42,932 bases of DNA from an uncultured bacterium. Its GTDB lineage: Bacteria; Bacillota; Clostridia; Oscillospirales; Acutalibacteraceae. Shown piece after piece: positions 10,087 through 26,189 of the stretch. The stretch lies in assembly GCA_949293385.1 (NCBI GenBank), contig CASFDQ010000130.1, forward strand, positions 1-42,932, written 5' to 3'. Position 1 is the stretch's first letter; the number at the start of each line of letters is the position of its first letter. The notes beneath the pieces are model-generated. The model saw nothing but the letters and a program-made list of their open reading frames with translations. It was not told the DNA's origin and ran no database searches. Position numbers and translations under genes: made by a program.

Positions 10087-10269
10087 TTAATATCCGTTAT
10101 ATCCGTTATAACGGTCTATAATGTTCCTTACCGCCCGAAAAAACCTTTCAGCGTCACTATGTATCTCCAATGGGTCGCCTTCGCGAATCCGCATAGTGCG
10201 ACGGATTTCTTTGGGGATAACCACACGACCCAAATCGTCTATTCTACGAACAATTCCGGTGGCTTTCAT
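10087..10269 (-). CDS. SpoVT/AbrB-type swapped-hairpin DNA-binding domain only; truncated SpoVT-like copy
   Basis: MKATGIVRRIDDLGRVVIPKEIRRTMRIREGDPLEI is nearly the canonical SpoVT N-terminus. After residue ~37 the similarity ends. The ORF stops after 60 aa, inside a tandem 9-nt repeat (atccgttat x2, encoding NGYNGY). The C-terminal GAF-like domain of SpoVT is absent. Confidence 0.7.
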   Translation of the reverse strand: MKATGIVRRIDDLGRVVIPKEIRRTMRIREGDPLEIHSDAERFFRAVRNIIDRYNGYNGY

Positions 10270-10357
10270 AATTATATAAAAACTCCTTGCTTTACAGACC
10301 TGACTGTTAGTATCTGTAAACACACGAGATTTATACTGCGCGAATTGACTTTTTAAT

Positions 10358-11110
10358 CTATGCCATTGTTTTAAGCATTTCTAACGTCACTTCATATCGG
10401 CAGGGTCTGTTTTGGATAAGCTTTTCGTATTCTTCTTTCATATATTCGCCCATTCGGCGTACTTCATTGCCTGAGCTTCCTGCGATATGAGGCGTGAGAA
10501 TGCAGTTTGGCAGAGTGTAAAACTCGCTGTCGCTTTCGGGCGGCTCGGGGAGGGTCACATCAAGCAGAGCCGTAAGGTCGGGGCGCGCTTTCAGTACCTT
10601 TATCAGATCTGCTTCTACAACCTGTGCCCCACGTCCCGTGTTGATAAAGGTGGCGTTAGTAAGCATCGTTTCAAACAGCCTGCCGTCTAACATCCCTTTG
10701 GTCTGCTCGTTATTGGCAAGGTGATTGGATACCACCTGACATTCCTTGAAAAGCGTTTCAAGGCCGACCTTTTTAACTCCAAGCGCAGCGGCTTTTTCAT
10801 CCGGCAAAAACGGGTCAAAGACCAGCACCTCAAGATTATAGCTTTTAAGCATATTTATGACCAGTTTGCCGATCATTCCCGCTCCGATGATTCCGATCTT
10901 CACATCATAGTTTCCGGGATATGAGTGGAAGCATTGCGAAGCGGCTTTGCGGTCACCCGTTTTTGCAAGGCGGCTGCTTCTGAAAAAAGCCCTTGTTGGC
11001 TAAAACTATCTGCGCCACGGTATATTCGGCAACGGGTACGGCATTGGCCGCCCATGCGGAAAAGCCTTATAATACGGCAGTATTACTGCATTTTTCATCT
11101 TCGCTTTTGG
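10358..11110 (-). pseudogene. D-isomer-specific 2-hydroxyacid dehydrogenase, frameshifted and 5'-degraded
   Basis: The intact 181-aa ORF covers only the NAD-binding and C-terminal part (KIGIIGAGMIGK...TPHIAGS). Upstream, the expected catalytic-domain segment GFSAWAANAVPVAEYTVAQIVLANKGFF is readable in another frame (about 10960..11050). It is preceded by an in-frame stop and followed by a TGA. Confidence 0.75.
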
Positions 11111-11310
11111 AAACAAAGTTACACCTACAAAACTGCTACGCACCCGAAAATGGATGATTTTTATGTAAGAAAAGGCAAAAAACCACGGTAACGCTGACGC
11201 GTCGTTAGTGAAGTTTTTGTTTTAGCATAGAATAATATATCGGGTTAGAACCAGCATCGCATTTGTATGTACAAATACAGTTGGGCAGTAGCCCAAACCC
11301 ACTAACAACA

Positions 11311-11353
11311 GAAAAGAGAAGATTCGTTTTTGCAACGAGTCTTCTCTTTTTTT
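11311..11353. terminator. Strong stem-loop with flanking A/T runs (bidirectional terminator-like)
   Basis: gaaaagagaagattcg / cgagtcttctcttttt (one mismatch) followed by TTTTTTT and preceded by an A-rich run. Confidence 0.6.
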
Positions 11354-11362
11354 GCCTGTTAA

Positions 11363-11607
11363 GTGATATGCTGACTAAAGTCAGCGTGATATTTTCTTTT
11401 GAAAATTCCTCGTCTATAGAGAGATATTTCCAAAAGAAAGTGATATTAAACCCTACGGGTTTAGTGATATTCTATTCGCCCGTAAACTTGCGAAGCAAAT
11501 AACACTCGACTGAAAGTCGAATATCACTGCGCAGCAATATAACTCGCCGTTAGGCGAATAGAGCTGCAGAAATGTTCGCTAAGAACATTTCTACTAACCC
11601 GTTCGGG
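11363..11607. repeat. Mini-hairpin array B with iterated GTGATAT motif
   Basis: GTGATAT occurs at 11363, 11386, 11440 and 11464, with an inverted ATATCAC at 11521. The motif copies bracket unrelated hairpins: gctgac/taaa/gtcagc, tttcttttg...caaaagaaa and taaaccc/tac/gggttta. Further hairpins are tcgac/tgaaa/gtcga, tcgcc/gtta/ggcga, gaaatgttc/gctaa/gaacatttc and ccc/gttc/ggg. Confidence 0.8.
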
Positions 11608-11629
11608 CGGTTATGATTAGGTATTCAGT

Positions 11630-13236
11630 TTACTTTACGGAGCTTTTTTTGCGGAAAACCAAGACTGCCGTAAGGATGGAAAGACAGGCTGCGGCCACGA
11701 CTGCCTAGTGGAGGACCGCCGAGCTGTCACCGGTGGGTGGGATCTCAAGCTCTTTCCACTGTGCGTAAAGCACGAGATCTCGGTCGCCCATCGTAAGCAT
11801 ACGCTCGGGATCGATGGTTACGCCCTTGCCGTCGGGAATCCGGTGCCAGCCGAGGAACATATATCCGTCGGCGGTAGGCTTCTCGTCGCTGACATAAAAT
11901 TCCTGATAAGAATAATATTCTCTGCCTTCGGGCATTTCGGCATCGACGCCGTTAGCGTCGTAGATAAGCTTATGGCAGTTTCCGAAGTAATCGTCAATAT
12001 CGGCCGCCGCTTTAACTACGGGAGCAGCGTTTTCATCCGCCTTATAAACGACGCCCGCAAAATTAGTATCTGCGGTCATAACGTCGGCGGTTTTGCCTTT
12101 AGCAAAGATGTTAGCGTCGATAAGATCGAAGGAGGCGGGAGCAATAAGGAAGATGCCCGCGCTGTCGGCCGCGTTTTCGGCCTCTGCGAGTCCGCTGATC
12201 AAACCGCCCTTAACCTTAACCGCGGAGGTGAAGATTCCGTAGGCCTCGGCCTCGCCACGGGATTCTCCGACGATCTCGCTTTCTTCGGCGTCGATTGACG
12301 GCGCGATAATTCCGTTGCTGATATCATCTCCGAGTCCGCCTGTGGCATCGATGTAGGAGGAGATCGCCTTAAGGGTACCGTGGCAAACAAGACCTGCACT
12401 TACCGTGGCGTCTCTGGCTTTGGCGTTAAGCCGGCAGTCCTCTAAGGTCGCGTCTGAGCTTACGAAAATACCATAATTTCGGGAGAATATCCCGTCGTCG
12501 GCATATACTTCGTCTGTTCTGGCTTCAATAACGCTGTTTTTAGCTACGAGCTTTTTTGTTTTCAGGGCGCAAAGGGCAAGATCGTCCTCCGCTCCACCGG
12601 GATAGCTCTGTTCCTCCAAATAGCCTGCGCAACTGAAGTCGAGCTCGGCGTACGAAGCGGTAAGAGTGCCTCCGACGGTCAATGCGTAGGAGTGGGGCTT
12701 GAAAGGGTCGGAATCGTCATAGGCTGACACGGATGCGCCAAAGCTTCCGCCGCTGACCGTAAGGTTGTTCTTAATAAACGCTCCCTCGTAGTGACCTGAA
12801 AAGTCGATCTCCAAGTCCTCTGTGCCGTAAAAGTTGGTCTCGTCGGCAAGAGAATAAAGTCCGTGCTCGCTATTAAAGCCGCAGTCTCCCTCAAAGGTGA
12901 AATCTACCCTTGAAACGCCGTCGGCAACGTAAATTACCGAATAGTCGGGAATAGTCGTTTCGTTATATTCCGGGGGTAAGCGTTGAGGACGTAGAGGTCT
13001 CGCAGGGTCACCTTGTGGGAACCGCTGAGGATCTTAATGTTATGGCCGGTGAAATCGGAGACTTCTCCGAAAATGACGTGACCGGGACATTCGGCACCGC
13101 AGTCGTTTATCACCACCGAGCCTGCAGAGATATCGTGCTGAATAGCGGTGGGCGTTTCGGCGTAGGCGGTAACGCCCGCCATAGTAACGAGCAGACCCAG
13201 AGCTAAAATAAGGCTTAAAATTCGTTTTTTTATAAT
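11630..13236 (-). pseudogene. Cell-wall-anchored surface protein with a Listeria-Bacteroides (Flg_new) repeat. It has three lesions: no canonical start, a frameshift and a premature amber codon.
   Basis: A signal peptide (IKKRILSLILALGLLVTMAGVTAYA) is readable from 13236 behind a GGAGG, but its first codons are ATT/ATA. The reading frame shifts at the G5 run 12972..12976; one extra base would join ...LNAYP to PEYNETTIPDY.... The C-terminus has a Flg_new-like module (YMFLGWHRIPDG...LVLYAQW) and then IPPTGD. TAG at 11705..11707 is followed in frame by AVVAAACLSILTAVLVFRKKSSVK. Together this is a complete LPXTG-type sorting signal split by a stop codon. Confidence 0.7.
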
Positions 13237-17141: not shown

Positions 17142-17774
17142 ATGGAAAACTTATCCGCCTTTTTATCCGAGGTTATCAGGCCTTCCGAGATAACCACCCC
17201 TACCGAGCCCTATTTTGACGTTACGAAGCACGGCGTTGTCGGCGACGGGGTCACCAATAATACGAAAGCCATAAACGAGCTTATAAAGTCGGTTTCCGGG
17301 GGAATAATATTCTTCCCTCCCGGTCGCTATCTTACGGGAACCATAATGCTTAAAAGCAATATGACCCTTTATTTGACCAGCGGCGCCGACTGCAAGGATA
17401 TGGAGCTTTTCGATTTCGGTCCCCGTCCTCTTGCCGACGATACCCCCGTTATGGAGGACATCTCCATAAATAACGTGATGGTCCGAAGGGCTACCGTCGC
17501 CGCAATGTATATTTTCGGCATACCCGAGCGTCCGATTAAAAACCTCCGTGTTCATAACTTCTCGGTCGAAAGCGTTATAGACCCCGCTATAAGACGGGAG
17601 CCGGTTATGATGCCCACCTTCGAAAAAATGCAGGGTAAGGGAATAATAATTAAAAACGTTTCCGATTCGGTCTTCTCCGAGATTTTAGTCACTACCGAAA
17701 ACGTGCCCCTCGAGTACGAAAACCTCGAAAACGTCACCTTCAACGGCAAAACCCTTGCGGCTGTGCCGCAGTGA
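17142..17774 (+). CDS. Pectate-lyase-superfamily / GH28-like protein, short form (probable internally deleted remnant)
   Basis: The N-terminus FDVTKHGVVGDGVTNNTKAINELIK...IIFFPPGRYLTGTIML is the Pectate_lyase_3/GH28 entry motif. The protein is only 210 aa, and I cannot find the central catalytic coils (NTDG, DD, HG, RIK-type motifs). The stop codon TGA (17772..17774) lies inside the first GTGATAT repeat. Confidence 0.6.
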   Translation: MENLSAFLSEVIRPSEITTPTEPYFDVTKHGVVGDGVTNNTKAINELIKSVSGGIIFFPPGRYLTGTIMLKSNMTLYLTSGADCKDMELFDFGPRPLADDTPVMEDISINNVMVRRATVAAMYIFGIPERPIKNLRVHNFSVESVIDPAIRREPVMMPTFEKMQGKGIIIKNVSDSVFSEILVTTENVPLEYENLENVTFNGKTLAAVPQ

Positions 17775-18139
17775 TATTCGCCTTCGGCGAGTGATATAGG
17801 GCTTTGCCCTGTGATATTTTTCCTTCGGAAAAGTGATATATTTTGCCTTTGGCAAAATGTTAACGTGTCTCCGACGGATCATATACGGCTTCGCACGAAA
17901 TATATTATACATCTTCCGGTCGGAAAACGATGTTGCCTTACGGCAAATGATGTTATGCTTCGCATAAACGATGTTGCGACTATCGTCGCAAACGAAATTT
18001 TTCCGTAGCGGTGGAGGGATAGTGCTCCCTCGTGAGATATTGCAAATTAGAATAAATTTCTACGGAGAGCGTAGGGGAGGGGCTTGCTCCTCCCGTGAGA
18101 TATTGCAAATTAAAATAAATCTTTTCGGCTACGAAAAAA
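17771..18139. repeat. Mini-hairpin array D: GTGATAT x4, AAAYGATGTT x3, 63-nt tandem duplication
   Basis: GTGATAT at 17771, 17791, 17811 and 17833, each followed by a different 5-8 bp hairpin with a TTC/TTT loop. GATGTT at 17929, 17949 and 17970, each followed by a hairpin. CGTGAGATATTGCAAATTA occurs at 18031 and 18094. The segment 17921..18015 is 92/95 identical to 26070..26164. Confidence 0.85.
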
Positions 18140-18140
18140 C

Positions 18141-18176
18141 ACCCGCTAAGCGTAAAAACTTAGCGGGTTTAAATTT
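18141..18176 (-). terminator. Terminator of the PHP-phosphatase/MBL operon
   Basis: 10-bp stem acccgctaag / cttagcgggt, followed on the minus strand by GTTTTTTCG. Confidence 0.7.
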
Positions 18177-25857: not shown

Positions 25858-26189
25858 CCGTAATTCGGTTGTGCACAGTGAATTACGGCGAGCGTAGGAG
25901 GCTCTGTTCCCCGCGTTTTAAACTTAAATGCTTATAAGAGAAAAACGGCTACGATGCTCGGCCATCTCCGGTGGGAGAAGGGGGACCACGACCCGTAGGG
26001 TCGTATTTCCGCCCGCAGGGAGGAACACCGTTTTGCGCCAAAGGCGCAAATATCGTTTTCGTTTGCGGACGGAAAACGATGTTGCCTTACGGCAAATGAT
26101 GTTATGCTTCGCATAAATGATGTTGCGACTGTCGTCGCAAACGAAACTTTTCCGTAGCGGTGGATGAGGCATATCGTAGCCGAGTTTTT
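25858..26189. repeat. Mini-hairpin array F, closed by a long-range helix
   Basis: Contains at least 9 hairpins, including ccgtaattc...gaattacgg, ctcc/ggtg/ggag, acgaccc/gta/gggtcgt, ttgcgcc/aaa/ggcgcaa and cgttttc...gaaaacg. It includes the 95-nt block shared with array D. The 10-bp helix cggctacgat (25946..25955) / atcgtagccg (26173..26182) is flanked by AAAAA and TTTTT. Confidence 0.85.

Follow-up and report, generated by a model that had tools for sequence, protein, structure and literature searches.

What is the run of short repeats and hairpins at positions 11363-11607 of the window (the whole 42,932-nt stretch of contig CASFDQ010000130.1 that we analysed), and at what level might it act? 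A sequence-only reading had described the heptamer GTGATAT recurring here among hairpins, together with one inverted copy. By motif search, we found that GTGATAT starts at 11363, 11386, 11440 and 11464 on the plus strand and that its complement ATATCAC lies at 11521-11527; every position and all six hairpins named in that reading are present in the sequence. Across the window there are 12 copies of GTGATAT, compared with 2.78 ± 1.58 expected from dinucleotide shuffles (0 of 100 shuffles reach 12). A hairpin of at least 5 Watson-Crick base pairs lies directly 3' of the heptamer at 9 of the 12 copies; in 300 shuffles this occurs 0.15 times on average and never more than twice, and the association between heptamer and hairpin that the sequence-only reading proposed thus stands against its shuffled control within the window. 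The copies outside the arrays (2039, 4899 and 5718) are all within coding ORFs and their number equals the chance expectation. The features of the locus and its surroundings are as follows.

10361-11063 (-): remnant of a 2-hydroxyacid dehydrogenase gene, first 81 codons absent, frameshift near 10985-10993
11247-11309: conserved upstream domain with two small hairpins, GCATTTGTA..TACAAATAC and TTGGGCagtaGCCCAA
11310-11352: long hairpin, its 5' arm polypurine, flanked by an A-run and, on the opposite side, by a T-run; terminator-like on both strands
11363-11470 (+): first array, with heptamers G1 (11363-69), G2 (11386-92), G3 (11440-46) and G4 (11464-70) and hairpins h1, h2 and h3 between them
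11370-11385: hairpin h1, gctgac/taaa/gtcagc
11393-11439: hairpin h2, tttcttttg..caaaagaaa
11447-11463: hairpin h3, taaaccc/tac/gggttta
11440-11566 (+): double-element core, as found with covariance model R1
11471-11480: 5' arm of helix P1, TCTATTCGCC, complementary to 11553-11562
11488-11557 (-): second, opposed array, with hairpins h4 (11488-98), h5 (11506-20), h6 (11528-36) and h7 (11544-57)
11499-505, 11521-27 and 11537-43: inverted heptamers ATAACAC, ATATCAC and ATATAAC of the second array, Gut-1-like when read on the minus strand
11507-11519: tcgac/tgaaa/gtcga, inside hairpin h5 (11506-11520)
11545-11557: tcgcc/gtta/ggcga, inside hairpin h7 (11544-11557)
11553-11562: 3' arm of helix P1, GGCGAATAGA, whose first five bases are also in the 3' arm of h7
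11569-11591: terminal hairpin of 9 bp, gaaatgttc/gctaa/gaacatttc
11633-13182 (-): surface-protein gene with a Listeria-Bacteroides repeat, 3' end towards the element
17769-17844 (+): sister locus, the 17.8-kb array

The tcgcc/ggcga stem of h7 is also found at 17778-17790 in the window, there with a ttc loop.

Relation of the arrays to the Gut-1 family

We scanned the whole window against Rfam 15 at gathering thresholds, and positions 11150-11750 in sensitive mode. The whole-window scan gave two matches, one tRNA and the Gut-1 RNA (RF01706). The Gut-1 match is the 17.8-kb array, a canonical single array that scores 65.1 bits against a gathering score of 50, and the motif, which the sequence-only reading had not recognised, is a published one. 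Gut-1 was first described by Weinberg et al. in 2010 from human gut metagenomes only, with no organism and no function, and was graded as certainly RNA and not cis-regulatory (PMC2864571). In a literature search we found no work on Gut-1 later than the 2010 paper, no published function and nothing on the heptamer. The published unit is the same as the one in the window: a GUGA(A/U)AU heptamer is followed by a short G+C-rich hairpin, the pair is repeated at least three times, the halves of the heptamer lengthen each stem by A-U and U-G pairs, and the habitat is gut Clostridia.

Gut-1 is recognised by at least three hairpins with GUGA(A/U)AU linkers and by compensatory changes in the stems. At the locus we found four exact GTGATAT copies and three hairpins on the plus strand, minus-strand linkers that read GUGAUAU, GUGUUAU and GUUAUAU, also with hairpins, and, in its family of homologues, compensatory stem changes evident both as double changes and in the covariation score. 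The sensitive scan placed a Gut-1 match on the minus strand at 11494-11566 with 42.9 bits (E 4e-7 in the 601-nt search). This is under the cut-off of 50 bits because the inverted heptamers are degenerate and h2 carries a 29-nt insertion. Weak plus-strand matches to Gut-1 lie at 11438-11529 and 11361-11410 (18.9 and 16.4 bits). We found no credible match to another Rfam family in 11150-11750; a weak GibS-like match falls in the upstream domain (E 0.15). A CRISPR array was considered and rejected: the repeat is 7 nt rather than about 23-48, the spacers are 9-17 nt (once 47) and palindromic, and the flanking ORFs contain no cas domains.

Relatives, anatomy and covariation of the double element

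To collect relatives, we took one genome from each species and searched it for three copies of GTGATAT at spacings of 11-19 nt, which gave at least 120 stretches; ascertainment thus required three perfect heptamers, and the loci are contigs of metagenome-assembled genomes (MAGs). Hairpin units are present in 102 of the 120 matches listed, and the few pattern matches in other phyla are unrelated tandem repeats, not Gut-1 units. Among the titles listed for L001-L080, every locus with hairpin units belongs to a Clostridia-class gut or rumen MAG, with labels including Oscillospiraceae, Acutalibacteraceae, Christensenellaceae, Ruminococcus and 'Eubacteriales'. More than 50 homologues of the double element were found, in Oscillospiraceae, Acutalibacteraceae and Christensenellaceae MAGs, and the window copy is 76-86% identical to many of them by blastn. 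A covariance model built from 31 double elements with the window left out (R1; h3, G4, P1, h5 and h6) matches the window at 11440-11566 (+) over its full length (model 1-127) with 128.3 bits (E 3.4e-26) and finds 57 copies in 100 loci among the matches listed. In one relative (L012), both halves score above the Rfam Gut-1 cut-off, on opposite strands; in L016, L070, L055, L017, L029, L103 and L114, opposite-strand reading of the second half gives 54-60 bits, and equivalent halves in the homologous double elements range over 52-60 bits against the gathering score of 50. By transitive homology, we regard the locus as a diverged Gut-1 homologue and not as an Rfam-threshold member. Gut-1, an orphan since 2010, can now be placed in Oscillospiraceae, Acutalibacteraceae and Christensenellaceae genomes, with many copies per genome.

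In the double form, the first part runs GTGATAT-h1-GTGATAT-h2-GTGATAT-h3-GTGATAT and is followed by TnTATTCGCC and a C/A-rich spacer; the second part runs h4-ATATCAC-h5-ATATCAC-h6-ATAT(C/A)AC-h7, the 3' arm of h7 continues as GGCGAATAn'A, and a long terminal hairpin comes last. In the single form, as at 17.8 kb, a 5' hairpin is followed by 3-5 GTGATAT-hairpin units, a final GTTnnGG linker and a 3' hairpin or terminator. Judged by this layout, the locus is the common double form of Gut-1, two arrays that face each other, and we hold it to be a Gut-1-type double element with high confidence. The inverted motif copy of the sequence-only reading is present at 11521, but it is not a stray copy; it is part of the second, opposed array. 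That reading had passed over three degenerate inverted heptamers (ATAACAC at 11499, ATATAAC at 11537 and ATAGAGC at 11558), the long-range complementarity between 11471-11480 and 11553-11562, the upstream domain and terminator at 11247-11352, and the known Rfam family.

The Rfam Gut-1 model describes one 77-nt array only, whereas the locus has the double architecture; in its usual form, Gut-1 consists of two opposed arrays fused through a covarying long-range helix that the Rfam model does not contain. In the published seeds, the opposed second array and the UAUAUUCGCC..GGCGAAUAUA helix are already visible in the flanks, and the seed sequences BAAZ01000095 and BAAZ01025322 have the double layout there, oriented as the window's minus strand. 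The double architecture, P1 with its competition with h7, and the terminator brackets appear to be absent from the 2010 paper, from which the link to tRNA genes and gene 3' ends and any assignment to organisms are absent. The conserved upstream domain, the copy number, the orientation rules and the absence of G-U pairs appear to be undescribed.

When we folded 33 loci with RNAalifold, all local hairpins and the long-range helix were predicted, with double substitutions in 25 of 49 pairs. In an independent alignment of 31 sequences, 96.9% of cells are paired; shuffled alignments reach 84.7%, and sliding the partners leaves 51% at most. The covariation score of 0.28 compares with 0.065 for shuffles (0 of 500 reach it) and no more than 0.063 for slid controls; 12 pairs have double changes. 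The proposal of the sequence-only reading that the heptamer and foldability are conserved while the stems turn over was thus borne out in 31-57 homologous loci, where double substitutions keep the pairing. The first array can be aligned with 32 homologues, in which its stems covary; the 29-nt loop of h2 is found only in the window copy.

P1 is invariant except at its third position n:n', which is A:T in 18, T:A in 18, C:G in 12 and mismatched in 1 of 49 loci; in the 31-sequence set it is AU in 13, UA in 11 and CG in 7. The window carries TnTATTCGCC as TCTATTCGCC and GGCGAATAn'A as GGCGAATAGA, and n and n' are complementary in 48 of the 49 loci. Because the 3' arm of P1 shares five bases with h7, P1 and h7 are mutually exclusive. 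Both are 98-100% paired across the 31 loci (h7 100%, with one double change), so two mutually exclusive pairings are both maintained.

Watson-Crick pairs make up about 97% of the stem pairs, and the plus strand has 10 G-T pairs and 17 A-C mismatches, so there is no G-U excess. As for the loops, 51% have three bases and 81% are closed by C-G, and they are mostly TTC, TGC and TAC, which read GNA on the other strand. C-GNA-G triloops are classic hyper-stable DNA mini-hairpins. The near-absence of G-U pairs together with C-G triloops is unusual for a selected RNA.

Further interpretations of the sequence were rejected. Pairing of GUGAUAU with AUAUCAC linkers, which RNAfold sometimes draws as a ladder of four-way junctions, does not fit the variation of the inverted heptamers (ATACCAC, ATAACAC, ATATAAC and ATAGAAC), which the forward heptamers do not mirror. 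An array of DNA-binding sites in phase with the helix is at odds with heptamer periods that spread over 18-27 bp. A 79-aa ORF at 11263-11502 and similar ORFs in homologues are translations of the element itself, and the start codon of a micro-ORF in the upstream domain is not conserved in the alignment.

Upstream of the first array, region 11247-11396 is 87-93% identical by blastn to L048, L016, L070 and L078, and the flanking genes are unrelated. Related upstream domains precede other subfamilies too; the domain at 11247-11309 may be part of the element or a separate small RNA. The hairpin at 11310-11352 is an inverted repeat that folds on both strands, where its 16-bp stem is followed by TTTTTTT on the plus strand and by TTTTCTGTTGTT on the minus strand, as in an intrinsic terminator, and it is conserved in relatives. 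The terminal hairpin at 11569-11591 is the counterpart of a long, terminator-like hairpin found at the same end in every homologue. Terminator-like hairpins are aimed into the element from both sides, and read-through into it may be low.

Damaged neighbour genes and distribution of the family

The sequence-only reading had placed the array in a zone of gene decay and suggested that it marks a rearrangement or insertion hot spot. Both neighbours are indeed damaged. The dehydrogenase remnant corresponds to residues 82-315 of a 315-aa homologue, with residues 82-110 in another frame than the rest. The surface-protein gene has a frameshift near 12820-12930, just past the signal peptide, and an in-frame TAG at 11705-11707 within ...IPPTGDSSAVLH*AVVAAACLSILTAVLVFRKK (the asterisk marks the stop), which contains an IPPTG sorting signal; we take IPPTGDSSAVLH*AVVAAACLSILTAVLVFRKK to be a sorting signal of the sortase type.

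In looking up orthologous loci, the exact-protein route gave short contigs of the same organism (L121 and L242) that end before the array, and the dehydrogenase route gave L245, the nearest relative found, with 83% nucleotide identity over window positions 10238-10994. Homology to L245 stops exactly at the window's frameshift point; L245 has the same 5'-truncated dehydrogenase, and the 5 kb of its contig that lie upstream of this gene contain no array. Truncated 172-aa versions of the dehydrogenase are common in metagenomes. Since the truncation occurs in L245 without the array and 172-aa forms recur, the decay is not tied to the array: the gene-decay context described earlier stands, but the array as its cause or marker does not. 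We therefore consider it very unlikely that the array marks or causes rearrangement or insertion and that the neighbours decayed in consequence. What speaks for such a hot spot, besides the damage on both sides, is that homology of the dehydrogenase ends at 11063, about 180 bp from the conserved domain, and that the same-organism contigs L121 and L242 break on either side of the region; yet the defects of the surface-protein gene are a nonsense point mutation and a frameshift more than 100 bp off, not junctions, and the family normally lies immediately downstream of apparently intact, co-oriented genes or of tRNA genes. In annotation, such arrays are better labelled Gut-1-type elements than signs of decay or CRISPR-like arrays.

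The family is dispersed and multi-copy. We found 7 further arrays in 679 kb of flanking sequence (about 1 per 100 kb), and the window alone has two Gut-1 arrays in 43 kb. Many pattern matches among those listed lie at contig ends. A flank protein is common to only 14 of 1830 locus pairs, and the search for recurrent neighbour protein families within 2.5 kb of 104 loci found none except a 23S_rRNA_IVP/bAvd-like gene at 5 loci. An origin from phages or plasmids was rejected, as the search of plasmids for the pattern gave no match and hairpin units occur in only 3 of 120 viral pattern matches. Copies inside one MAG belong to different subfamilies, and subfamilies are common to several species (L005/L080 and L020/L048). 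Long-maintained paralogues would fit this distribution of subfamilies better than a recent burst of a mobile element.

Strand and possible function

Evidence on the strand that comes from folding is contradictory or neutral. The folding z-score is about -11 on both strands. Single-sequence folding energy favours the window's minus strand (32:16), whereas the consensus fold favours the plus strand (-38.2 versus -30.9 kcal/mol), because the TAT and GTG halves add U-G, A-U and U-G pairs to the stems only on the GTGATAT strand; the Rfam Gut-1 model incorporates this extension of the stems. Counts of G-U pairs do not settle the strand either. Scans of the loci for promoter and terminator consensus sequences found no conserved promoter and were uninformative.

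The clearest strand signal is the genomic context. With neighbour orientation in the relatives judged from stop-to-stop ORFs of at least 150 aa, we found that on the right-hand side the adjacent gene is directed into the element in 36 of 42 cases (36:6), whereas the left-hand neighbour is unbiased (15:22), both among the matches listed. The 3' end of a tRNA gene adjoins 11 of 61 double elements among the matches listed and is always co-oriented with the Gut-1 array of the second half (11:0). For single arrays, the gene upstream has the orientation of the array in a ratio of 13:6 and the gene downstream in a ratio of 13:5; several of these arrays lie between cistrons. In the window, the surface-protein gene on the minus strand is directed into the element, and the 17.8-kb array begins at the stop codon of a plus-strand ORF. 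Given this bias in the orientation of upstream genes and tRNA genes, the RNA at this locus is more likely to come from the minus strand.

An RNA-level role on the minus strand is thus the reading that we prefer, and we consider it somewhat more probable than its absence. We infer that the element is transcribed, from the window's minus strand, as a trailer of the surface-protein gene. The RNA from 11591 to 11471 would form a closed Gut-1 domain, that from 11470 to 11363 would form three very stable hairpins parted by single-stranded AUAUCAC, and the 11352-11310 hairpin would end the transcript. The heptamer, invariant at the base of every hairpin, would be read by a putative sequence-specific factor (an RNA-binding protein or else an endoribonuclease), and the upstream transcript would have its 3' end capped and insulated by the hairpins. 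Function would then be like that of REP/BIME elements, except that the conserved part is the linker, not the palindrome. We put this mechanism of a multivalent platform and 3' cap forward only tentatively; the explanation overall, a compromise among its components, has in our judgement an even chance. The match of R1 (128.3 bits on 11440-11566) argues for membership of the family, and the grading of Gut-1 as RNA by Weinberg et al. (PMC2864571) for a role as RNA. Against it are the absence of a G-U excess, the better consensus fold on the plus strand and, in the loci searched, the failure to find a conserved promoter or a linked protein gene. A factor that recognises the heptamer, should there be one, would be a widespread, uncharacterised regulator or nuclease of abundant gut anaerobes.

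As the main alternative, the element might act as DNA, with single-stranded DNA hairpins and with the heptamer as the recognition or nick site of an unlinked HUH/Y1 nuclease (compare RAYT and REPs) or structure-reading recombinase (compare IntI and attC), and the family would then persist and spread as DNA, preferably beside terminators and tRNA genes. We find this doubtful, although much fits it: the Watson-Crick-only stems with no G-U excess, the predominantly C-G-closed triloops that read GNA on the other strand, the symmetry and opposition of the two halves, the many copies with two arrays in the 43-kb window, the matches at contig ends, the truncated gene beside the window copy, and flanks that are non-syntenic in 1816 of 1830 pairs though the elements are 76-93% identical. 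GTGATAT also bears what we take to be a resemblance to CTTG/ATA, the nick site of phiX174 gpA and pC194-type Rep proteins. However, copies in one genome differ in their stems and subfamilies cross species, unlike a recent MITE or REP burst, and within 2.5 kb there is no recurrent gene for a transposase, HUH protein or recombinase. We saw neither target-site duplications nor terminal inverted repeats, plasmids gave no matches and viral contigs nearly none (3 of 120 pattern matches), and heptamers are spaced broadly, at 18-27 bp. A transcriptional feature, moreover, is the simplest reading of the bias in orientation with respect to upstream genes. Another alternative is a free-standing small RNA from the plus strand, which would have a promoter upstream of about 11235 and a leader (11247-11352) that ends in an attenuator-type terminator; read-through would yield four GUGAUAU units and then AUAUCAC units up to the 11569-11591 hairpin, and the RNA would titrate a protein or RNA as CsrB/RsmZ or the riboswitch-controlled EutX/Rli55 do. 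This arrangement would account for the better consensus fold on the plus strand, where alone the GUG and UAU halves extend the stems, for four plus-strand heptamers that are far better conserved than the inverted ones, for the conserved leader and terminator just upstream in several subfamilies and the -10-like boxes about 30 nt upstream in others, and for the perfect hairpin and T-run that end many homologues on the plus strand. We nevertheless judge it unlikely: a downstream neighbour that is convergent in 36 of 42 cases and tRNA genes that are always opposed are not expected of an independent gene, the terminal hairpin of the window lacks a T-run, the 5' part of the leader is degenerate in the window compared with its relatives, and tens of copies in each genome are many for a sponge RNA.

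A broader possibility, which we rate as rather unlikely, is that Gut-1 arrays represent a novel class of repeat specified by structure: a putative enzyme of Oscillospirales and Christensenellales would read a 7-nt tag together with any perfect hairpin on single-stranded nucleic acid. In that case the double form would be a two-state device (P1 versus h7) or the propagated unit. If true, this would account at once for stems restricted to Watson-Crick pairs, for the GNA/TNC triloops and for opposed arrays that inward terminators insulate.

Several known systems resemble the element in part. REP/BIME sequences of Enterobacteria and Pseudomonas, which are mobilised by RAYT (Y1) transposases, are likewise multi-copy extragenic hairpins that lie after genes or between convergent genes in opposed orientations, with a short tag by the hairpin, and they share the candidate roles of 3'-end protection and termination. 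In REP, however, the palindrome is conserved and the tag is GTAG, whereas in Gut-1-type arrays the palindromes vary and conservation is confined to the 7-nt linker: different stems are found from unit to unit, in the window's two arrays and among copies in one MAG. We found no RAYT-like gene and no recurrent transposase-like family within 2.5 kb of the 104 loci, where RAYT, being single-copy, need not adjoin. CsrB and RsmZ resemble the locus in that a short motif is repeated on a scaffold of hairpins, which suggests multivalent binding; in CsrB, however, the GGA motifs are mainly in loops and the partner CsrA is known, whereas here the motif lies between hairpins, may be largely base-paired and has a much higher copy number per genome, and no candidate protein came to light. 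The element is presumably also like integron attC sites, in which, as we understand them, structure is conserved over sequence save for short boxes, and the strict Watson-Crick pairing fits folding as single-stranded DNA. Unlike attC, the locus has no R/L box consensus, extrahelical bases, cassettes or nearby integrase.

The loci supply testable rules: the position after co-oriented genes and tRNA genes, and stems made of Watson-Crick pairs only. As a separate observation, a related family, with the linker AA(A/C)GATGTT, is present in the window in two copies that are 95% identical.

Genes flanking the double element

Three coding features lie beside the double element (two opposed Gut-1 hairpin arrays) in the window:

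10087-10323, minus strand: small AbrB/MazE-fold (SpoVT_AbrB) gene
10361-11063, minus strand: 2-hydroxyacid dehydrogenase remnant
11633-13182, minus strand: surface-protein gene (Listeria-Bacteroides repeat)

We found that C-terminal fragments of this dehydrogenase, exactly 172 aa long and 67-85% identical, occur repeatedly across many metagenomes (P0010, P0012-P0014, P0016, P0018, P0021, P0044, P0064, P0082, P0086, P0104, P0107, P0113 and P0117). In L245, the nearest relative found, homology to the window ends exactly at the point of the window's dehydrogenase frameshift, 10994. Taken together, these data suggest either a recurrent breakpoint or a truncated form that is conserved. The SpoVT_AbrB gene adjoins the remnant, and at another locus (L044) its homologue, 83% identical, adjoins the double element.

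On the other side, the surface-protein gene has an in-frame TAG (11705-11707) that falls within the IPPTG sorting signal, and a frameshift separates the signal-peptide ORF (12934-13182) from the main ORF (11705-12814). A gene for a 23S_rRNA_IVP/bAvd-like four-helix bundle (PF05635, E 3e-28) accompanies the double element at five loci from other genomes (L008, L021, L088, L092 and a fifth); its start is about 45 nt away from the element's first heptamer, and it is oriented divergently from the element.

Conserved domain upstream of the double element

11247-11355: conserved non-coding domain with a strong terminator at its end

This domain is 87-93% identical in MAGs of four other species, where the flanking genes are unrelated. 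Other double-element subfamilies are preceded by similar domains, comprising CTTAnCGGAGAA, two hairpins and a polypurine-arm terminator. It may represent a small RNA in its own right, or a leader/attenuator.

Surroundings of the 17.8-kb Gut-1 array

17142-17774, plus strand: pectate-lyase-like ORF, 210 aa
17914-18015: second hairpin-array family, copy 1, 102 nt
18023-18065 and 18085-18128: direct repeat, 86% identity, each unit a G+C-rich hairpin then GTGAGATATTGCAAATTA
18141-18168: bidirectional terminator
26063-26164: second hairpin-array family, copy 2, 102 nt

The stop codon of the pectate-lyase-like ORF is a TGA within the first GTGATAT of the array, and the gene may be truncated there. 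Elsewhere, at L094, a complete single Gut-1 unit is duplicated in tandem (1958-2035 and 2112-2189, 66.8 bits each), its 3' GTTATGGAATATTCC tail included.

Immediately after the 17.8-kb array comes one copy of the second family; the two copies are 95% identical, with an AA(A/C)GATGTT linker and three hairpins (ttgcc/ggcaa, ttatgc/gcataa and ttgcgac/gtcgcaa), and this family had no Rfam match. The direct repeat has the hairpin arrays on one side and the bidirectional terminator on the other.
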